A stretch of 64,000 bases of DNA from Candidatus Marinacidobacterales bacterium (GTDB lineage Bacteria > Acidobacteriota > Vicinamibacteria > Marinacidobacterales > SMYC01), in the NCBI GenBank assembly GCA_965237955.1, contig OZ250169.1:1600001-1664000 (forward strand). Direction: 5' to 3'. Positions within the stretch are counted from its first letter, which is position 1, and every line of letters begins with the position of its first letter. The translations under genes were made by a program, and so were the position numbers. The notes under the pieces were generated by a model, which was given only the letters and a program-made list of their open reading frames with translations, did not search any database and was not told the DNA's origin. Positions 36,253 to 48,174 of this stretch are shown here, in pieces.

Positions 36253-36299
36253 CCCTATTGACACTACGCGACCCGTCCGCGAGAATTGAATCAATAGGG
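36253..36299 (+). promoter_or_regulatory. Putative sigma70 promoter of the ubiquitin-like operon, bracketed by a 9-bp inverted repeat
   Basis: TTGACA (36258-63), 17 bp, GAGAAT (36281-86); ccctattga (36253-61) and tcaataggg (36291-99). Confidence 0.55.
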
Positions 36300-36340: not shown

Positions 36341-36622
36341 ATGGGTGATGTCAACCTAGAAGTCTGGGATGCCACCGGTAACAAACGGGTCGAAGTCGAG
36401 GTGCCCGACGACGTTACCGTGGATCGCATCCTGCTCGTTCTCGCGGACAAGCTACACCTTCCCAAGCACAGCCCCGACGGCCAGTTGATGAGCTACAAGT
36501 TTCACCACCGGCGGCTCGGGATCCAGCTTCTCGACGACAAAACGCTCGCCGATCAGCAAGTTGCTGACGGTGACGTAGTTCGAATCCAGCCAGAGATAAC
36601 CGCTGGCGTCGTCTGGGCGTGA
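36341..36622 (+). CDS. Ubiquitin-like beta-grasp protein (YukD/EsaB-like) with a short C-terminal extension
   Basis: VEVPDDVTV..IL..L...L.LP, L.DDKTLAD..V.DGDVVRIQPEITAG followed by VVWA; first gene before E1. Confidence 0.85.
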   Translation: MGDVNLEVWDATGNKRVEVEVPDDVTVDRILLVLADKLHLPKHSPDGQLMSYKFHHRRLGIQLLDDKTLADQQVADGDVVRIQPEITAGVVWA

Positions 36623-36626
36623 AGCT

Positions 36627-37776
36627 TTGAAACTCTCGCACAGCGAGCTCGGCATTGACGGCAGGCACGAGAGCGACGACAGCGCGGGCCGCTATCACCG
36701 ACAAGAGCTCATTACCTGGTGGGATCAGAGTCGAGTGCGCTCCGCACGCGTTCTCGTCATCGGCGCCGGCGCGCTCGGAAACGAAATCCTGAAGATCCTG
36801 TCGTTGACCGGCATCGGCGAAGTGCTCGTCTATGACATGGACGTCATCGAGCAAAGCAACTTGTCCCGCGGTGTCTTGTTCCGCGATGAAGACAAAGGCT
36901 CGGCCAAAGCGACGGTCGCGGTCGAGCGCATGCGCGAGCTCAACCCCGACGTGAGCGCCCACGCGCGCGTGGAGAACTTGAACCACAAGGCCGGCCTGGG
37001 AGTGTTTCTGTGGGCCGACGTCGTGATCTGTGGACTCGACAACCGCGAAGCACGCATCTTTGCCAACAGTGCGTGCGCAGCCACGGGTCGGACCTGGGTC
37101 GACGGCGCCATCGAAGGGTTGGCTGGCATCGCCCGCGTTTTCAATCCGGCGGAAGGCGCGTGCTACGAATGCACCATGAACGAGACCGACCGGAAACTCG
37201 TGGCCGAGCGGCGTTCGTGCGCGATGCTCGCGCGGGCCATCGTCGAGTCCGGACACGTGCCGACGACCGCGGTAGCAGCATCCCTCGTCGCGGCTCTCGA
37301 AGTTCAAGAAGCGATCAAGATTCTTCATGGTCAACCCGCCATCGTCGGCGAAGGCACCACTCGGCCTTCGAAGCGACGCGATAACTTTCGAAGCGCTTGT
37401 CGAGCGAGCGGAAAAAGAGCTCGGCAATGGTGCGGTTTTGGAGCTCAGCCGCGACGTCATCGTGTCGCTCGAATGCGCCGCGTGCGGCACGCGTGAGCCG
37501 AGGTACGTTGTTCTCGGCGAGCTCGGCGAGAAAGATGCCGCGTGCCCGAAGTGCAGTGCCCACCGTATCGTCGAGTTCGCCTCGTCGGTTTCGCGCGACG
37601 GCGTCGTCGATTTGAGCCGAACGCCGCAACAAGCAGGTTTGCCGCCGTTCGACATCATCGTCGCCCGTCAAGGCCTGGACGATCAGCGCGCGTGGCTCTT
37701 CGACGGAGACGCAACCTCGGTGCTTGGACCTCTCACGGTTCCCGCGGAGATGGGAGGTGTTCTTGAACGGTCTTGA
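36627..37776 (+). CDS. E1-like (ThiF/UBA) activating enzyme, frameshifted near 37355
   Basis: RYHRQ..I.WW.Q, VLVIGAGALGNE, D.D.IE.SNLSR, GLDNREAR, ACYEC, RRSC (candidate catalytic Cys). The second frame carries CAAC/CPKC and GLPPFDII. Confidence 0.88.
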
Positions 37777-39007
37777 CACGCGTGCCATCGACACCAAGGA
37801 GCTTTCGAAGGAGACGTTTCCTCACGTCCGGCACGGTTTTCGTATTTTTATCTCGGAAGACGCGTTCGATCGTGCGACCGAGCGCGGGCAGGCGGACCTG
37901 ACGCGCGAAGTGGGCGGCGTTCTCGTCGGCCGTATTCATCAGGACAAGAACGGTCCGTTCGTTAAAGTCGATGCGACCATCGACGCGCTCTACGCTGAAG
38001 AAAAGGAAACGGAGCTCACGTTCACGCAAAAGACGTGGGACTACATTCACAAAGAGCTGGAATCCAAACACAAGGGCAAGAAGATCGTCGGCTGGTACCA
38101 CACGCATCCAGGCTTCGGCATCTTCTTGTCGGATCGGGATCTCTTTATTCATCAAAGCTTCTTCAACCTTCCCTACCAAATCGCGCTCGTCTATGACCCG
38201 AAGAGCCACGAGCACGGTGTGTTCGCGTGGCGCGACAACGAGCCCGCGCGGTGTCGACAGTACTGGGTCGGGCACGAAGAAAACCTTTGGGACGGTCCCC
38301 GCATGGCGGTGGAGCCCATGGCTGCCGTCGTAAGCCCGGAGAAAGAGGACATGAGCAACAAACGGGTCGAGCTCGCGCCTTCGGAGCGCGAATGGGATTG
38401 GGCGACGTTCGCGATCACCGCGGTGGCGCTTGTGCTGATTGGTGGTCTCGCGGGTTTCTGGTTCGCGCAGTACCGGATGCGCGACGCCATTCGTGAGGCG
38501 CAAATGCGCATCGATCGGGATCGAGCGGCGGCGGCGGAAGTATTGCTTCGAGGGCTGAACGTGGAGCTCCTGAGCTTCGTGCGCGAGGCTGCTTCCGGCG
38601 GTTCCGGGCTCCGCCGGGATTTCGATGAAGGGCTCACCGCCATCGATCTCGGTGTCGTACAGCTTTCGAGGGGAGGTGACACGAAAGACGCACTCGTTCC
38701 GTTGATCGCGGGCCGGCGCAAGCTCAAAGAGCTTCGCGACGCGCATTTCGCAGCCGATCGCTCGTTGAGGCTCTTGCAGAGTCTCGGCGAGAAGACCTCT
38801 GCGATCCCGAGGGAAGTCACCCGGATGCTTTCCGATCAACGCGCCGCGCTCGGTCAGCTCTACGCGGAGGTCGCGGAGGATGTTGCCCAAGCGGGGGACA
38901 ACCGGCGTGCCCGGCGTCTTCTCCGACTCGCGGCCACACTGGATCCCGGAAACGCGCGCCGCTACGAGGACAAGCGGGCCGGATTGAAAGAGGAGGGATC
39001 ACCCTGA
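37763..39007 (+). CDS. JAB/JAMM (Mov34/MPN) metalloprotease with one TM helix and a helical C-terminal region
   Basis: EVGGVLVG...VGWYHTHPGFGIFLSDRD motif; TM ATFAITAVALVLIGGLAGFWF; GGAGGT RBS before TTG 37763. Confidence 0.88.
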   Translation: MNGLDTRAIDTKELSKETFPHVRHGFRIFISEDAFDRATERGQADLTREVGGVLVGRIHQDKNGPFVKVDATIDALYAEEKETELTFTQKTWDYIHKELESKHKGKKIVGWYHTHPGFGIFLSDRDLFIHQSFFNLPYQIALVYDPKSHEHGVFAWRDNEPARCRQYWVGHEENLWDGPRMAVEPMAAVVSPEKEDMSNKRVELAPSEREWDWATFAITAVALVLIGGLAGFWFAQYRMRDAIREAQMRIDRDRAAAAEVLLRGLNVELLSFVREAASGGSGLRRDFDEGLTAIDLGVVQLSRGGDTKDALVPLIAGRRKLKELRDAHFAADRSLRLLQSLGEKTSAIPREVTRMLSDQRAALGQLYAEVAEDVAQAGDNRRARRLLRLAATLDPGNARRYEDKRAGLKEEGSP

Positions 39008-40383
39008 GCGAACGAGTCGTCATCCAAAGGGACGAGCTCTACGACAAGAGCGTCGACGAAGCGCTGAGAAAAGAGCGTCAGCTTCGCACCCACGTCGTTT
39101 CCCAAGAGCCTCCCGATCTGTCTCCGGTACGAAGGCTCATGATGTCGAGCCTGTTCTACCTTCCCGTCGCGGGACTTCTGGCGAGCTTCACCGCCTGGGT
39201 TTTGATCGAGCCGCACTTCGCCGACTTTTCCCTAATAGGTGGGGAAGTGCTTCTCGTGAACTCCGAGCCCTTCGAGTTCGGGGACGGCTCGGTCGATCCC
39301 GAGCTCGGCGACGCCATCAACCTCACAATAGGGGACAACAAAGTCATCGTGTTCCCCAATCTCATCTCGATGGAGCCGGGAGCTGACTCTCAGCCGCCCT
39401 TCAACGACATTTCCGAGGTCCAACCCGGAACGTATCTCGAAGCGGTGGGCGAAGTCTGGGCTGAGAACGAGATGGTCGCGGGCGCGCTTCGTCCGGCGAC
39501 GGCAACGCACGCTGGCGACACGGGTGATCAAATCGGGAGCGGCGACAACTTCGCGGGCTTGCTCCTGTTCCCCTTGACCGCGGTCTTCATCGCCGTCGCC
39601 ATGCTCGTCGCGGAAGGGGTATCGAGTCGCAACTGGGTTCGGATGATCGATCGCGTGATGATCGGGGTCTTGTTGACGGCGATCTTCTCGTTCCTCTCGT
39701 TCATCCCCGCTGCGATCATGATGACCATTGCTCAGTCCGTCATGTCGATGGACGCGTCTGCCGACTGGACCACGGTCCAGGACATGCCGGCGGTGACGTT
39801 CGTCTTATACGCCGCTTGTCGCAGCGGCGCGTGGGCCTTCATCGGCGCCGGCCTCGGGCTGGGGATGAACCTTGCCCGCAGCACCAAGAGCCAGCTACGA
39901 AACTCGGTCATCGGCGGCGCTCTCGGCGGCGTGTTCTTCGACCCCATCGATCGATTTTTTCAAGAACCGTCGGCGTTCGCGGGCGCCGAGCTGTCCCGCC
40001 TCGTCGGTTTGGTCGCGGTAGGACTGTCCGTGGGCTTTTTCGTGGCTCTCGTCGATCAGCTCGCACGTGAAGCGTGGCTGCGCGTGCGGACCGGTCCGCT
40101 CGCGGGAAAATCGTTCGTTCTCTACAAGACGCCAACGACGGTTGGAAGCTCACCGTCGGCCGACGTTTATTTGTTCAAAGATGCGGCCATTGATCCCGAT
40201 CACATCGCGATCCATCGCGTCGGCAACCGATACGAGATCGAGGACCTCGGCACCCGCTCCGGCACCCAAGTCGGCGGGCAAGCCATCAGACGACAACGCC
40301 TCAACTCCGGCGATCAAATTACGTTGGGCGCGACCGTGCTCGAGTTCGAAGAGCGCGCCAAACAATCGAGCAGCGCGGAGTGA
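39004..40383 (+). CDS. Polytopic membrane protein with C-terminal FHA domain
   Basis: The frame opens at CTG 39004, overlapping the JAB stop (CTGA) after GAGGAGG. Several TM segments, then GPLAGKSFVL...TVGSSPSADVYL.KD..I...H...IEDLGT.SGT.V.G...L.SGDQI.LG. Confidence 0.82.
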   Translation: MSERVVIQRDELYDKSVDEALRKERQLRTHVVSQEPPDLSPVRRLMMSSLFYLPVAGLLASFTAWVLIEPHFADFSLIGGEVLLVNSEPFEFGDGSVDPELGDAINLTIGDNKVIVFPNLISMEPGADSQPPFNDISEVQPGTYLEAVGEVWAENEMVAGALRPATATHAGDTGDQIGSGDNFAGLLLFPLTAVFIAVAMLVAEGVSSRNWVRMIDRVMIGVLLTAIFSFLSFIPAAIMMTIAQSVMSMDASADWTTVQDMPAVTFVLYAACRSGAWAFIGAGLGLGMNLARSTKSQLRNSVIGGALGGVFFDPIDRFFQEPSAFAGAELSRLVGLVAVGLSVGFFVALVDQLAREAWLRVRTGPLAGKSFVLYKTPTTVGSSPSADVYLFKDAAIDPDHIAIHRVGNRYEIEDLGTRSGTQVGGQAIRRQRLNSGDQITLGATVLEFEERAKQSSSAE

Positions 40384-40399: not shown

Positions 40400-40969
40400 A
40401 TGGGCCAGACGGTAAACCGGCTCAAAACCAATCGAGTCCTCGAAGGCAAGCCGTGCGGGTGGTGCTCTAACACGCTGACGTTCGGAGAGGACGCAGCTCT
40501 TTGCGAAGGCTGCACCACCGGCCATCACGCAGCGTGTTGGGACGGAAAGGGCGGGTGTGCCTCGGCCGGCTGTGTGAACGCACCGCTGAAACAGCTCGCG
40601 CCGCAGCCGGAGCGGCCCGTGGGGCCGCCACCGGGCAAGATGAATTGTCCGAACTGCCAGCTCCAAATACCGGCGAGCTCCGTTCGGTGCGAGTACTGCA
40701 ACGTGGGCGTCACCTCCCCGGATGGAGTGTACCGGGGACCCACGCAGACGGCCCCGGGCGCGGTTGCATCGCTCGTGTTCGGGATCCTGGCGTTTTTCCT
40801 TTGCGGCATCATCTTTGGTCTCGTCGCCATCCAGAAGGCGGACGAAGCCAAGACCGCGATCGCCGCCGATCCGAGTCTTACCGGCGGCGGCATCGCGACA
40901 ACGGGGAAGGTGCTCGGGATCATTGCCCTCGTCGTTTGGGGTCTGGGCTTGATCATGCAGGCCATGTGA
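40400..40969 (+). CDS. Prokaryotic RING finger + Zn ribbon + DUF4190-like membrane domain (candidate E3)
   Basis: CGWC..CEGC..HHAACW..GGC...GC; CPNC..CEYC; GAVASLVFGIL...CGIIFG...G.G.A..G.VLG; GAGGAGG RBS. Confidence 0.82.
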   Translation: MGQTVNRLKTNRVLEGKPCGWCSNTLTFGEDAALCEGCTTGHHAACWDGKGGCASAGCVNAPLKQLAPQPERPVGPPPGKMNCPNCQLQIPASSVRCEYCNVGVTSPDGVYRGPTQTAPGAVASLVFGILAFFLCGIIFGLVAIQKADEAKTAIAADPSLTGGGIATTGKVLGIIALVVWGLGLIMQAM

Positions 40970-40973
40970 GGAT

Positions 40974-41387
40974 GTGATGGGAGCTCGTCTGAAAGATTTG
41001 GGTCTGGGCGTCGTTGCCGCCGGCTGGCTCGTCGCTGCGACCTGGATGACGCCCGCGGGGGACGTCCTCGCCGCGCCATCGGGCGAGACGCTACCGACCA
41101 TGTGCTGGATCCGAGCCACCACCGGTCACGCGTGCCCGACGTGCGGTATGAGTCGAAGCTTCGTCGCGTTTTTTCATGGCGACGTAGGCCACGCGTTCCA
41201 GTTTCATCCGGTGGGCCCGGTCCTCGCGGCGGCTACGGTGATGGTTCTCGTTTCGGTTCTCGGGCTCGCGATCTCGGGGCGCAGGCCGCTTTGGGGTCGC
41301 CCGGTTTTCGCGCGCGCGCTGACGCTCTCGGCGGCGGGCGCTCTTTTCGCTGGCGTGGTACGCATGTTGGTTGGAGGGCTCGGATGA
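40974..41387 (+). CDS. DUF2752-like membrane protein
   Basis: C.....TGHACPTCGMSRSF....HGD...AF..HP motif with TM segments. Confidence 0.8.
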   Translation: MMGARLKDLGLGVVAAGWLVAATWMTPAGDVLAAPSGETLPTMCWIRATTGHACPTCGMSRSFVAFFHGDVGHAFQFHPVGPVLAAATVMVLVSVLGLAISGRRPLWGRPVFARALTLSAAGALFAGVVRMLVGGLG

Positions 41388-41923
41388 ATCGCTGCTCGGT
41401 TTGTCACACGTTGATTCAAGAAGGTGTGCCGACGCGTACCTGTCCGGAATGCCATCAGCAGTATCATGAGAGCTGTTGGGAAGGCATTGGGGGGTGCGCG
41501 ACGTACGGCTGCGAGAAAGTCGCGCCCGCGGAAAAACCAGAACCGGTGGCGGTGCAAGGCACGGGGTGGGGCGACAGTAAATCGTGTCCGGCGTGCGAGG
41601 TTGAGTTGAGCTCGAGCTTTCTCGTGTGCAGCTGCGGAGCCCAGTTCCCGTACGCGGACTCGATGACGAAGGATGAATACTACCACTGGCTCGCGAAGCA
41701 GGAGCAGATCAATTCCGCGCGTCGTTCTCTCGTCATTCTGTTCGTAGTCTGTTTGGCCGGCGTGCCCGCTCCGGTGATCGGGCCGATCGCGGGATGGTAT
41801 GCCTTTACCAAGAGAAAACAGCTGGAGGGCGCCGGTGGCACGTATCTCGCCATGGGATACGGTACCGCGGCGCTAGGAGCGACCTACGCGTTGATGATGC
41901 TCGCGCTCGCGTTGGGATTCTAG
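41384..41923 (+). CDS. Second prokaryotic RING finger + Zn ribbon + TM protein (candidate E3)
   Basis: CSVC..CPEC..YHESCW..GGCATYGC; CPAC..CSC; C-terminal hydrophobic helices; ATGA overlap. Confidence 0.82.
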   Translation: MNRCSVCHTLIQEGVPTRTCPECHQQYHESCWEGIGGCATYGCEKVAPAEKPEPVAVQGTGWGDSKSCPACEVELSSSFLVCSCGAQFPYADSMTKDEYYHWLAKQEQINSARRSLVILFVVCLAGVPAPVIGPIAGWYAFTKRKQLEGAGGTYLAMGYGTAALGATYALMMLALALGF

Positions 41924-41941: not shown

Positions 41942-43228
41942 GTGACGATGAGCACCGTAGGGGGGACGATTTGTCCTGAGTGCAGCGCTCCGGTCAAGGT
42001 GCGTCTCATCGGTGGTGAGGCGTGTCCGCAGTGTGAATCGTCGAAAGCCTGGGAGCGCTACGGCGGGGACGGCCACAAGCTCGTCATCCACAAGCGGGAT
42101 ATTGCAGAGGCCGAAGCCAAGATCACCGGACAAGCCGACGGTTCGGCGGCGACGGCGCGGTACTGGTTGCCGGGTCTTCTTGCTCTCGGCGTCGGCATCG
42201 GAGCGAGCTTTTTCGTGCGCGAGCTCTTCAGCGCTCGTCCGCTCGGTCCCTTGGAGCCGTTGGTCGCGGAGCTGCAGCGAACGTCCCTCATGCGCGCAGG
42301 GCTCGGCGTTGTGGCTCTCGCGGTAGGCATTGCATCGACGCTCGCGCAGAAAAAGGGATCTCTGTTCAGGAACGCGACTCTCCTCATCGTGAACTTGTCC
42401 GCGGTGCTCGTGGGAGCGGTCACGATGCTCGTCGGTGCATTTCAATGGGCCAACTGGGGCGGTGCGAGCGGCGTCGGCTGGGCTCACATGGCGATGCCGC
42501 CGCTCGCGGGAGCTCTGTCAACGACGCAGGCGATCACCGCCCAAGAGAAATCCATCATGTCGGCGACGACGGTTCTGGTCGCACCGGATGGGAACGGAGA
42601 CGCGCGCGGAATGTCGTTGGGATCGGGCGCTGTCATCCGCAGCGACAGCGGAGCTGCATTTGTGGTGACCTGCTCTCACGTCGCCATGCCGTATGCTTCG
42701 GTTGCGGCTTTCCGGGATCCTAAGGATGCCCATCCCGTGTGGGTCTATTTTTCGGATGGGCGCCATGCCGAGGGACATGTCGTGTGGACCGCCGAGCCGC
42801 CCCTCGACGTCGCGGTCGTGCGCGTCGACATCGAAGACCCTCCCAATCCGGTACCGGTGCGCGCGAGCGCGGATGCGGCCGAGCAAGGGTTCGACGTGTC
42901 GTTCGTGCCCAACCCGTTCCGCTCGGGATGGACGGTGCACCGCGGCAAAGTGCTGAAGCGGGAGTCGCACCGGACGCCTGCCGGAGAATACAGTTTGATC
43001 TATACCAGTTTGCCGGTGCAGCCGGGGGACAGTGGTACCGGGCTCTTCGATAGTTTGGGTCGCCTCGTCGGGCTCAACACGTGGACGCAGATCGAAGAAG
43101 GGGGACCGAGGGGCATCAGCTTGCCGTCGAACACGATGGAGCGCATCGTCGAGATGATGGAGATGACGGAGATGATGGACGCCAACGAGCTCGTCAACTT
43201 GGACGGGCTGGATGGGGCAGATCCATGA
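41942..43228 (+). CDS. Membrane-anchored trypsin-like serine protease with N-terminal Zn ribbon
   Basis: CPEC..CPQC, about 3 TM helices, triad motifs TCSHV / LDVAVV / PGDSG..LFD..GRLVGLNT. Confidence 0.82.
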   Translation: MTMSTVGGTICPECSAPVKVRLIGGEACPQCESSKAWERYGGDGHKLVIHKRDIAEAEAKITGQADGSAATARYWLPGLLALGVGIGASFFVRELFSARPLGPLEPLVAELQRTSLMRAGLGVVALAVGIASTLAQKKGSLFRNATLLIVNLSAVLVGAVTMLVGAFQWANWGGASGVGWAHMAMPPLAGALSTTQAITAQEKSIMSATTVLVAPDGNGDARGMSLGSGAVIRSDSGAAFVVTCSHVAMPYASVAAFRDPKDAHPVWVYFSDGRHAEGHVVWTAEPPLDVAVVRVDIEDPPNPVPVRASADAAEQGFDVSFVPNPFRSGWTVHRGKVLKRESHRTPAGEYSLIYTSLPVQPGDSGTGLFDSLGRLVGLNTWTQIEEGGPRGISLPSNTMERIVEMMEMTEMMDANELVNLDGLDGADP

Positions 43229-44220
43229 GCAACTTTCGACTACGTCGTCTACAGTCGGACTACGAGGCGGTGAAACGTCTCGTTCACTTGCATCCGAAGA
43301 TCGAGGTCGAGGGGGTGAGCGGAAACCCACCCGACCGCTATCGGTTGGTGATGCGGGTTCGCTCGCTGCGCGAGCAGGGCGAGCGCGTCGATCTCGCCAG
43401 AGAACATCGCCTCGAGATCACGCTTCCCAAGGGCTACCCGCGAGATGCACCGGTGTGTCGCATGCTCACGCCGGTCTTTCATCCCAACATCGCGCCGCAT
43501 ACGGTTTGCATCGGGGATCACTGGAGCGCTGCCGAGCGCCTCGACGAGATGATCCAACGCGTCGGAGAAGTGCTGGGGTTTCAGAGCTACAACGTGCAGA
43601 GCCCGCTGAACGGCCAGGCGGCGCGCTGGGTCGAAGAGCACATGCATCGGCTGCCGATCGAAAAAGAAGAGTTTTTCATCGATCTTTCGAGCGCCGTGCA
43701 CCGTGACGTCAAGACCGCGAGTCAAGATCAATGCTCCAACTGCGGCGCCAAGGACAAACCGCTCGAGCCGTGCGGGACGGGGCACGTCCTGTGCGGCGAT
43801 TGCGTCGCGCACTGCAAAGTATGTGGGTCGGTTCTTTGCCTCGCCTGTGGATCGACCAGTTGCAAGGCATGTGCTCAGGCCGCACTCGCGGCTACGGCGC
43901 CGACGGCGGCGAGAGTGCAGGCGCCCGTCAACCCCACTCGGCCAACCGGGCCCACCGGGCCGGGCGCGGCCACAGGCGCCACCGCGACCGCGACTTCGAC
44001 CGCGACGTCTGTCTCTGCTGTTCCCGCAAAAGCCGCGCCCGAGGCCGCCGCGGCGCAGCATCAAGGTTGGGTCTGCAGCAATTGTGGCACGCGAGATACC
44101 AAGGCCGTGCAGTGTCGCCAAAAACACATCCTGTGCTCGAATTGCATGATTCGCTGTCAGACCTGTGGGCGCGGGTTGTGCATGATGTGCGGCCAGTACC
44201 CTTGCCAGGCGTGCGCCTGA
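43225..44220 (+). CDS. E2 ubiquitin-conjugating (UBC) domain fused to two Cys-rich RING-like Zn-finger repeats
   Basis: RLRRLQSDY, LPKGYPRDAP, TPVFHPNI....VCIGDHW, SPLNGQAARW; two CxxC-x9-CxxxH-xx-CxxC-CxxC-CxxC-CxxC units. Confidence 0.88.
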   Translation: MSNFRLRRLQSDYEAVKRLVHLHPKIEVEGVSGNPPDRYRLVMRVRSLREQGERVDLAREHRLEITLPKGYPRDAPVCRMLTPVFHPNIAPHTVCIGDHWSAAERLDEMIQRVGEVLGFQSYNVQSPLNGQAARWVEEHMHRLPIEKEEFFIDLSSAVHRDVKTASQDQCSNCGAKDKPLEPCGTGHVLCGDCVAHCKVCGSVLCLACGSTSCKACAQAALAATAPTAARVQAPVNPTRPTGPTGPGAATGATATATSTATSVSAVPAKAAPEAAAAQHQGWVCSNCGTRDTKAVQCRQKHILCSNCMIRCQTCGRGLCMMCGQYPCQACA

Positions 44221-46790: not shown

Positions 46791-48174
46791 GGGTCTACGC
46801 GGGTTCGTGTGGGTTGAAAACGGCATTTCTGGGTAATGGCGGAAGGAATGCCGCCACGATCTTCAGCTTGAGATATCCCTCGTCACGATAGCCGTAGGCG
46901 CGTCGTTGCAGAACACGGATTTTGTTGTTGACCCCTTCAACCAGTCCGAGACTGACTTTGTTCTCAGGATGACAGTAGGAGGCGATACCATCCCAATGGG
47001 ACTCAATCATTCCGGCGAACTTCTGGTAGGGATGCAGGCGCTGCCATTTGAGGCTGTCTTTCCAACGTGTGAAAAAGGCGCGAGCCCCGCGTTCGGTGCG
47101 GTAATCCCAGAGTTGCCCGAAGGCCTCCTTCAAAACATAGGCGGTGTTCAGGCGCCGGTTGGCCTGGAGCAACTTCTTGAGTGCGCGGCGACCGTCCAGG
47201 CTCAGGTTCTCCCGCCGGGAAAGCAACGTGTAACGCTGCCCCTTGATATACGACCGGTCCTCGCCGCTGAGGCGTTTGTACTCACGGCGCCGGACCTCAT
47301 CGAGAGCCTTTGACAGGTGACGCATGATATGAAACTTGTCGAAGATGATCCGCGCATTGGGTGCGTTGTTAATCACCGAGTTCCGGAAGGGCTTCCACAT
47401 ATCCATGGCGGCCAGCTTGATACGGGCGCTTTTCTTCCCGCCCAGCGCCTTGAAGAACAAATCGATGTCGGTTTCTTTGCGACCCTCACCGCCCACCCAG
47501 ATGGGACGCGCCCGCTCCAGGTCGCTGACAATGACACGATAGTTATGTCCCTTGCGGATGGAGATCTCATCAATACCGATGGCCCGAGGCGCCGGCAGCC
47601 CCGCCCGCTCGACTTGCTCTTGCATGTAGAGCTTATCCAGGTCCTTCACCGTAGTGTGGTGCAGACGTTCCATCTCGGCCACCGCCTTGTTCGGCATATC
47701 CCGGCACAGCTTGCCCACATGCGTCGCAAAGCGCTGGGTGTAGCGCGGGTTGTTCGCCAGCCAGTCCAAGTGTTCTACATGCACACCACCGCACCCACGA
47801 CAGTTGACGCGCCAACGCTCGTATTCCAGATAGATCCGCCAGCCTGCCAACGACAGGTCGCGGACCCGGCACACTTGCTTGTCATAGCGCCCCCGGCACC
47901 GATGCCCACAGTACGAGCACACGGCTGTTTTTTTCGCCTCTTGAGCTGGATGACGCGGGCGTATCGGTCACCGAATACACCGTTCAATCGGGCGCCAGCC
48001 ACGAAACCTGGTAGCGCAAAAAGCGAGCGGATCGACTGGGGATTTTTCACTCGGTTAGCCTATCCGAAAAACGGATCACTTCTCAGCACCTGATGAAGTG
48101 CTGAATACCTTTTCCACACAATGAGTTACACTATTTCTCCGTCAGCATTCGCCCACAGATTTCCGCGTAGACCC
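46791..48174 (-). mobile_element. ISL3 family insertion sequence (1384 bp) with 8-bp target duplication
   Basis: TIRs gggtctacgcgg..tgtggg / cccaca..ccgcgtagaccc; ATATTTCT duplicated at 46783-46790 and 48175-48182; lower GC than the flanks. Confidence 0.95.
46795..48050 (-). CDS. ISL3 transposase, two ORFs joined by a probable -1 frameshift at A7 (47928-47934)
   Basis: CxxC Zn finger, IGIDEIS..KGHNY, AMDMW, FDKFH, EG.NNKI....RRAYG; upstream ORF ends ...LKRRKK at A AAA AAA C. Confidence 0.9.

Follow-up and report, generated by a model that had tools for sequence, protein, structure and literature searches.

A eukaryote-type E2 with tandem predicted zinc modules in a damaged bacterial ubiquitin-like operon

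The DNA analyzed here, referred to as the window, is a stretch of 64,000 nucleotides from Candidatus Marinacidobacterales bacterium (contig OZ250169.1, positions 1,600,001 to 1,664,000). It holds an operon of nine genes for a putative ubiquitin-like (Ubl) conjugation system, the last of which encodes a ubiquitin-conjugating enzyme (E2) with a cysteine-rich C-terminal tail. The protein, P0001, consists of a UBC/E2 core followed by two copies of a predicted zinc-binding module, and the two copies are separated by a linker (Table 1). Its open reading frame (ORF) begins with an ATG that overlaps the stop codon of the protease gene before it.

The initial annotation of this gene described a eukaryote-like E2 with the motifs RRL..D, YP..AP, TP.FHPNI, C..D.W and SPLN..AA, each of which we located in the translation, namely as RRLQSD, YPRDAP, TPVFHPNI, C95-IGDHW and SPLNGQAA. 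The eukaryote-like layout was borne out by profile, sequence and fold comparisons. The Pfam family UQ_con (PF00179) matched the protein with 37.2 bits at a cut-off of 27 (E 2.7e-9), the top matches in a sequence search of the PDB were eukaryotic E2s (UBE2C, E 3e-8), and a Foldseek search with the full-length model gave 367 matches at E<=0.001, where all rows shown were E2 chains or fusions with TM-scores by target of about 0.6. The same Pfam family was matched by 120 of the 120 aligned homologues, in all of which the residues F85-H86-P87-N88 and C95 are invariant. In the AlphaFold model, the core and both modules are predicted with confidence and the linker is disordered. Hydropathy analysis revealed no transmembrane-like segment in the E2, and the NCBIfam and PADLOC profile scans contained no family for it. 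To judge from its sequence, the product is a eukaryote-type HPN-Cys E2, for which the formation of a thioester is predicted.

It had also been noted that the core is followed by two copies of the pattern CxxC-x9-CxxxH-xx-CxxC-x3-CxxC-x4-CxxC-x4-CxxC. Both copies match exactly, from C170 to C216 and from C284 to C330, and a scan of the 8.1-Mb genome in all six frames gave no further match. Across 76 aligned module units none of the 12 ligands varies, although the units were chosen by the ligand pattern and this invariance is therefore partly built in. Support independent of the ligand pattern comes from a hidden Markov model (HMM), which identified two modules in 117 of the 121 proteins from the homology search, a search whose length window and ranking favor two-module forms. 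The conserved non-ligand positions are N172, D192 and L206, and in the column profile Asn precedes Cys2 in 75/76 units, Leu follows C205 in 70/76 and Gly follows C208 in 63/76. A YPCxxC or YP motif was observed in 71 of 117 second modules and in 2 of 117 first modules, and in a weak tree of module copies most first copies group separately from the second ones (7 changes, compared to 30 after shuffling). The Ala/Thr/Pro linker between the copies is present as initially described (23 Ala, 11 Thr and 8 Pro, with a predicted local distance difference test score (pLDDT) below 50 at residues 237-279), but its long form is not a feature of the family. The linker measures at most 15 residues in 95 of the 117 two-module proteins, with a range from 3 to 78, and we therefore consider the long version to be a local expansion.

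A longer version of the tail was found in the E2s of four loci (L101, L103, L104 and L106), which have the same six-ligand head, then 7-11 or more units of 15 residues with the pattern CxxC-x4-CxxC/H-x3, and a final CxxC. In terms of its ligand pattern, the window module is the shortest form of this rod, with a six-ligand head, one CxxC-x4-CxxC/H-x3 unit and a CxxC cap, amounting to 12 ligands. We infer that each module binds three zinc ions in a staggered cross-brace (170/173/190/193; 183/187/205/208; 197/200/213/216).

The fold of the module was compared with known fingers. The single-module model (pLDDT 89) contains no helix before residue 214, and a Foldseek search with it returned nothing at E<=0.001. 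The best TM-scores were obtained for folds of the FYVE/rabphilin type (TMq 0.52-0.58, compared to 0.33-0.43 for RINGs), and a search in VIA likewise placed FYVE folds (Z 4.3-4.5, root-mean-square deviation (rmsd) 3.2-3.4 over 50-52 residues) above RINGs (Z 2.4-2.7). All of these matches are weak, with nothing at Z>=5 among the families that are represented in VIA, which leaves room for families that are absent from it. A search of the ESM Atlas with module 1 gave no usable match. The term RING-like, as used in the initial annotation, thus holds only loosely: RING rows were listed for the Cys repeat, but below FYVE rows and none with significance, while the spacing of the first six ligands is of the Sina type and the predicted fold is a cross-braced treble-clef. 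The best Pfam family for the whole module was Siva (PF05458), which matched 29 of the 120 proteins at E<=0.1 (best 1.2e-5) and 20 of the 76 units. For the window protein the score was 16.1 bits at a cut-off of 26.2, and one homologue has a precomputed Siva match. The first 26 residues of the module overlay GATA fingers at an rmsd of 1.2-1.4, with a sequence match of E 5e-4 over the first six ligands. None of the known ubiquitin-binding fingers matched the module above noise (AN1 Z 3.4 and UBZ Z 2.2 in VIA). The motifs by which FYVE domains bind phosphoinositides (WxxD, R(R/K)HHCR and RVC) are absent from the E2 sequence and from the column profile of the module.

Canonical RING domains contact E2s through their central helix, the CPxCR end and a hydrophobic residue that precedes Cys2, and we used these features as a yardstick. 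The module has 12 ligands, not eight, only 3 residues separate ligands 6 and 7, and the contact features are missing from the units and the model: Asn precedes Cys2 in 75/76 units, the Leu and Gly named above stand at the positions of CPxCR, and the central helix is absent. The Prok-RING motifs encoded elsewhere in the operons carry I, W, V or Y before Cys2 in 65/76 cases and Trp after ligand 6 in 76/76, neither of which was required by the search pattern. An hhalign comparison of the module with the Prok-RING profile gave no alignment (7.9%).

The homology search yielded 1490 proteins at E<=0.001 (5941 candidates), and the operon type has already been predicted in print; the E2 is thus not unusual for bacteria within this operon family, contrary to what was first suggested. 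The named carriers belong to the Acidobacteriota, the Kofleriaceae/Myxococcales, the Planctomycetota and, more distantly, the Syntrophomonadaceae, the closest of them being acidobacterial. The distribution within the phylum is patchy: any match was found in 20 of 301 genomes, with full-length matches only in G000 and G051 and a partial match in G277, and among 61 closer genomes 5 had a match, full length only in G000 and G306. As for the tail, the 88 complete E2 ORFs in the collected loci comprise 41 with two modules, 25 with one, including 4 long rods and 1 degenerate module, and 22 with none. Eighteen of the tail-less ORFs are distant E2s, and the other four (L088, L092, L094 and L095) belong to the same clade; L094 has a tail-less E2 and yet the whole operon, including both RING genes. 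Of the 19 full operons, 10 encode an E2 with two modules, 6 an E2 with a single module and 2 an E2 with a rod, and the E2 of the remaining operon is tail-less. On a tree of the E2 core with 90 rows, the states "one" and "two" need 11 changes each, the four tail-less proteins nest inside the clade and the rod forms occupy a more diverse part. This tree has SH-aLRT (Shimodaira-Hasegawa-like approximate likelihood ratio test) support only and many open forks; it omits 17 listed cut or degenerate loci, has 4 relabelled rows and includes a subsample of 25/40 rods and 26/47 two-module rows. Two further systems were observed among the loci. L004 and L005 from the Syntrophomonadaceae contain a related operon with two JAB genes and two E2-like genes, one without a recognizable HxN-Cys, and the E2 tails are acidic rather than zinc tails. 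L010-L016 represent a second system in the acidobacterial phylum, with a compact Ubl-E2-JAB order and a tail-less E2 (HPNIKLQAVC).

The module is not restricted to this E2. When its profile was searched against 1.84 billion representatives, 84 matches were found, 83 of which were examined and 53 of which occur with this E2. Onward fusions among the 83 involve DUF4190 in 5 proteins, FHA in 2 (one with a kinase) and WD40 in 1. The fused E2-rods (P0147, P0173, P0175, P0199, P0205, P0149, P0201 and P0203), which carry DUF4190, FHA, an FHA-Ser/Thr kinase or WD40, are possible one-protein E2-substrate adaptors. About ten matches without an E2 belong to one unrelated family (P0182, P0184, P0186, P0193, P0195, P0198, P0200, P0202 and P0204), in which an N-terminal domain of about 300-400 amino acids precedes the same zinc head and rod and which includes a Promethearchaeota protein. 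The Atlas clusters of one such protein are mainly from Nanobdellota and Thermodesulfobacteriota, and its nearest named Atlas family is YqhG (features 0.77, which is a lead only; TM-score 0.54 by the YqhG model).

Table 1. Features of the operon and of the E2 protein, in window coordinates.
Feature	Position	Strand	Basis
Ubl tag (YukD/beta-grasp), conserved end ...TAG89 plus 4-residue extension	36341..36622	+	YukD E 2e-11
ThiF-family activating enzyme (E1), frameshifted by a 92-nt deletion	36627..37776	+	ThiF E 1e-48
JAB/MPN peptidase with one transmembrane-like segment and a C-terminal domain; start perhaps 37757	37724..39007	+	JAB E 2e-11, hydropathy
Multi-pass membrane protein with C-terminal FHA	39139..40383	+	FHA E 1e-12, hydropathy
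Prok-RING_1 (C4HC3) with zinc ribbon and DUF4190 membrane anchor; predicted ligase (E3)	40400..40969	+	Profiles, hydropathy
DUF2752 membrane protein	40974..41387	+	Profile
Second Prok-RING_1 with zinc ribbon and two transmembrane-like segments; predicted E3	41384..41923	+	Profiles, hydropathy
Trypsin-like (HtrA-type) protease, N-terminal CxxC...CxxC, transmembrane segments	41942..43228	+	Trypsin_2 E 6e-18
E2-zinc-module protein P0001, 331 amino acids, last gene of the operon	43225..44220	+	ORF calls, UQ_con, homologues
UBC/E2 core, residues 1-158	43225..43698	+	UQ_con, alignment, Foldseek
HPN motif, residues 86-88, and predicted catalytic Cys95	43507-43509 (Cys95 codon)	+	
Zinc module 1, C170-C216, 11 Cys and 1 His, predicted three Zn	43732..43872	+	Pattern, alignment, model
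Ala/Thr/Pro-rich linker, 67 amino acids, mostly disordered, lineage-specific expansion	43873..44073	+	Model, homologue comparison
Zinc module 2, C284-C330, ends in YPCxxC	44074..44214	+	Pattern, HMM

The nine genes follow the order Ubl-E1-JAB-FHA-RING-(DUF2752)-RING-protease-E2, in which DUF2752 is optional. The full order was found in 19 loci that were long enough to hold all of it, out of 106 fetched loci, most of the remainder being too short for the whole operon. Six of the nine genes encode transmembrane-like segments according to hydropathy. At least two Prok-RING motifs were identified by pattern in 18 of the 19 full operons, whatever the tail of the E2, and the second Prok-RING_1 domain of the window operon scored 27.5 bits, just below the cut-off, in one scan and exceeded the cut-off in another. 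The operon copies in L086, L101 and L103 have four or five such motifs, not two. Residues A88-G89 of the Ubl are invariant in 20 of 20 aligned rows, which were cut to that length, and the tag has lysines. The H/D/S motifs of the protease are visible as CSHVA, LDVAVV and GDSG. The Ubl matched no PADLOC model, the E1 and JAB proteins gave only generic weak matches, and no DUF6527 was found among the operon genes in the profile scan. The system-specific E2 and Ubl profiles and the DUF6527 or CD-NTase partner that would mark Bil, Bub or CBASS Cap2 were thus not found here.

The promoter scan gave 1 promoter-like site (36258-36286; 1.4 expected) and the terminator scan 7 terminator-like sites (7.8 expected), both at chance level. 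Based on ORF clustering alone, the window shares flanking genes essentially only with L001 and single genes also with L042 and L045, and no neighbor gene stood out as recurring across phyla. About 2.6 kb downstream of the operon, at 46795-48050 on the minus strand, lies a transposase-like gene that is spread over two overlapping frames and by eye resembles ISL3. A proteasomal fate of tagged proteins was considered and judged unlikely: no 20S proteasome was found in the genome, and its sole PF00227 match reads by eye as HslV beside HslU. Elsewhere, in G000 (C1:5201623-5203493; L111:5624-7494), a 55-aa ORF that ends in GGE lies directly upstream of a gene of the Pup-ligase family (E 4e-70), a pair that we take to resemble UBact/Pup.

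In an alignment with L001, the window E1 lacks 92 nt at about position 37355/37356. The deletion takes out the conserved RxxxCxxH segment with the second pair of zinc ligands (CxxH), shifts the frame and cuts off the C-terminal domain; the E1 gene is one open frame in 21 of the 21 related loci where both halves match. Assembly error was rejected as the sole cause of the break, as a contig from the public sequencing run X1 spans the deleted form and run X2 holds both forms, of which the longer, with 91 extra bases, comes from a contig of low depth. X1 may stem from the very sample that was assembled here, which leaves X2 as the sole independent indication of the deleted allele. None of the sequencing runs listed contained RNA. 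The 92 extra bases are present in runs X5 and X7, and near-identical strains in other runs carry an intact E1 allele. For the Bil E1, the corresponding zinc ligands of the C-terminal part are described as stiffening the E2-binding loop of the structure (PMC10557695). Because the E1 is frameshifted, the conjugation cascade is likely silent in this strain, and the operon would represent a damaged allele.

We lean towards the interpretation that the E2 takes the tag of the operon on Cys95, that the modules serve as docking tethers to membrane partners and that the Prok-RING proteins are the E3s. In its favor are the conserved gene order with separate Prok-RING genes, the missing RING contacts of the module and its weak leaning towards FYVE folds, the labile tail, the rod forms and onward fusions, the head and rod on proteins without an E2, and the transmembrane-like segments that six of the nine gene products have and the E2 lacks. 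In such a cascade, the JAB peptidase would trim the tag to ...TAG89 and thereby expose Gly89, and the E1 would adenylate the tag and pass it on to Cys95 of the E2. The zinc modules would dock the soluble E2 on a membrane assembly beside the RING, FHA, JAB and protease proteins, where the Prok-RING membrane proteins would direct the transfer of the tag to membrane-associated targets and from which the JAB peptidase could remove it again. In other lineages, the rod joins the E2 to a DUF4190 membrane anchor, an FHA domain, a kinase or WD40. The combination of FHA and an HtrA-type protease suggests a coupling to phosphorylation and to envelope protein control. Anti-phage defence, which is predicted for such operons in part of one source (PMC10557695), may be considered the main alternative role of the operon as a whole.

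Several observations weigh against this interpretation. No partner of the modules was identified, and fusions to DUF4190 and FHA are few (7 of the 83 examined matches). The Prok-RING profile gave weak and about equal matches to C1, PHD and RING-H2 fingers, and the role of these proteins as separate E3s is for that reason a prediction only. There are also signs of a RING affinity in the module itself. The spacing of the head, CxxC-x9-C-x3-H-x2-CxxC, is close to that of Sina-type RINGs, and Sina_RING matched 11 of the 76 units at E<=1 (best 0.0043). This does not amount to a significant match to a RING profile: the window unit scored 13.4 bits at a cut-off of 29.3, and of the 120 full-length proteins a single one stayed within E<=0.1. 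The RING of SIAH1 ranked second in the Foldseek search with the single module (TMq 0.38, rmsd 5.6), one match of the module profile, P0151, is a true Sina-RING repeat protein aligned over the head only, and the top Foldseek match of the full-length model is an engineered E2-RING fusion (8v0d, rmsd 8.7).

One could imagine that the modules work in cis as divergent RING-type E3s, with a third zinc knuckle in place of the RING helix and the module folding back on the Ubl-charged E2 to activate transfer. The Sina-like head would fit such a role, as would the weak alignment of the module profile at positions 3-45 with the RINGs of TRIM56, TRIM21 and RNF2 (E 0.14-8) and the position of the module directly after the core in E2-bearing proteins. 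Siva, the best whole-module family, would fit as well, as Siva1 is reportedly an E3 or E3 adaptor. Yet the residue before Cys2 is Asn and not hydrophobic, the helix and CPxCR are missing, and RING folds score below FYVE folds. Moreover, four E2s of the same clade have lost the modules, one of them within a full operon, proteins outside the ubiquitin system carry them as well, and the operons retain separate Prok-RING_1 genes irrespective of the tail type. We regard an E3 activity in cis as quite unlikely. The initial annotation had proposed a built-in E2-E3 fusion or a substrate adaptor; the adaptor half of that proposal comes near to the docking function favored here, whereas the fusion half finds no support in a module that lacks the RING contacts, is freely lost and duplicated, and coexists with two separate Prok-RING_1 genes. 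The module is probably not an E3.

Another thought is that the modules directly contact the Ubl tag or the substrate, with tandem copies raising the avidity and favoring a processive or chain-type tagging. The conserved N172, D192 and L206 and the YP motif of the second copy suggest a binding surface, the two kinds of copies are largely separate in the weak tree, and a tag with lysines and a tandem duplication would both suit such a reader. The lack of a match to known ubiquitin-binding fingers above noise and the module on YqhG-like proteins without an E2 argue against it, and we rate this explanation as unlikely, albeit with an appreciable chance of being correct. The modules could also be structural remnants of an ancestral zinc rod without a specific partner, given that the E2 tree is more diverse where the rods are found, that four proteins tolerate the loss and that the linker varies from 3 to 78 residues. 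This is very unlikely in our opinion, as the 12 ligands and N/D/L are kept across proteins labelled Acidobacteriota, Myxococcota and Planctomycetota, truncation retains a multiple of four ligands and two copies are kept in 117 of 121 homologues, from a search that favors such forms. A binding of lipids in the manner of FYVE, of nucleic acids in the manner of GATA, or a role as Fe-S sites is least credible of all: the best folds are FYVE and the first 26 residues match GATA fingers, but the phosphoinositide motifs are absent, the model has no GATA recognition helix, and a mixed set of Cys and His ligands arranged as in a treble clef typically binds zinc.

A more far-reaching idea is that the module belongs to a finger class of its own, with E3 or ubiquitin-reader function, in which a RING-like head is part of a cross-brace of three zinc ions; eukaryotic Siva would be related to it, and Asgard and Nanobdellota proteins would have it too. 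We think that this is improbable, but if true, the protein would unite E2 with E3 or reader activity in one self-contained enzyme of a bacterial, membrane-bound ubiquitin cascade, and the module would be a living relative of the ancestor of the RING, FYVE and Siva fingers. For the docking function that we favor, the modular and dispensable zinc-rod tail points to the membrane Prok-RING proteins as the probable E3s. Homologues with 0, 1, 2 or many modules, as well as the broken E1 allele beside intact ones in near-identical strains, provide natural controls. The module links bacterial E2s with YqhG-like archaeal and bacterial proteins, and possibly with eukaryotic Siva, and thus bears on the evolution of treble-clef fingers.

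The operon type itself will not surprise the specialist. Burroughs, Iyer and Aravind reportedly predicted prokaryotic Ubl/E1/E2/RING/JAB operons in 2011, and their paper or its supplement may already show the architecture of the E2 tail. Our literature search, which covered subscription papers poorly, retrieved no paper on the tail and no experimental study of the operon type. The head-unit-cap anatomy, the variation between zero, one, two modules and rods, and the YqhG-like carriers come from the present analysis. Passages in other sources mention uncharacterized Ub/E1/E2/RING/JAB operons in Actinobacteria, Planctomycetes and Acidobacteria (PMC4197634), mobile prokaryotic operons with an E2, sometimes an E3, and JAB (PMC3417536, PMC7159879) and the C4HC3 arrangement of prokaryotic RINGs (PMC11354881).

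The window operon shares with the predicted operons a Ubl, a ThiF E1, an HPN-type E2, JAB, Prok-RING_1 (PF14446) and a patchy spread. A Ubl ending in Gly is linked to JAB, E2 and RING genes as in other members of this type, the difference being that the E1 is not intact in this genome. With the RING E3s, of which the Sina/SIAH C3HC4 type is closest, the module has in common how its first six ligands are spaced and a predicted cross-brace, but it differs from them by 12 instead of 8 ligands, the missing central helix, Asn at the E2-contact position, the missing CPxCR and lower fold scores. The FYVE/rabphilin fingers provide the best fold rows, at Z 4.3-4.5 and thus below significance, and the module departs from them by its extra inferred zinc site and the absence of phosphoinositide motifs. 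The Cys-rich domain of Siva is the closest Pfam family for the whole module, below the cut-off for the window protein. Bacterial E1/E2/Ubl/peptidase chemistry has been shown by experiment for Bil, Bub and type II CBASS (PMC11601603, PMC10557695, PMC11601596), which have other gene sets and for which the accessible parts of these sources name no RING, FHA or membrane proteins. The eukaryotic class III E2s, such as UBE2K, and UBE2C, the best sequence match, have the same UBC fold, HPN motif, Cys position and SPLN-AA segment, with a UBA domain or a disordered tail in place of the tandem three-zinc-type module and the bacterial operon described here. Among bacterial systems, operons with a full E1-E2-RING-JAB set come closest to the ubiquitination machinery of eukaryotes.

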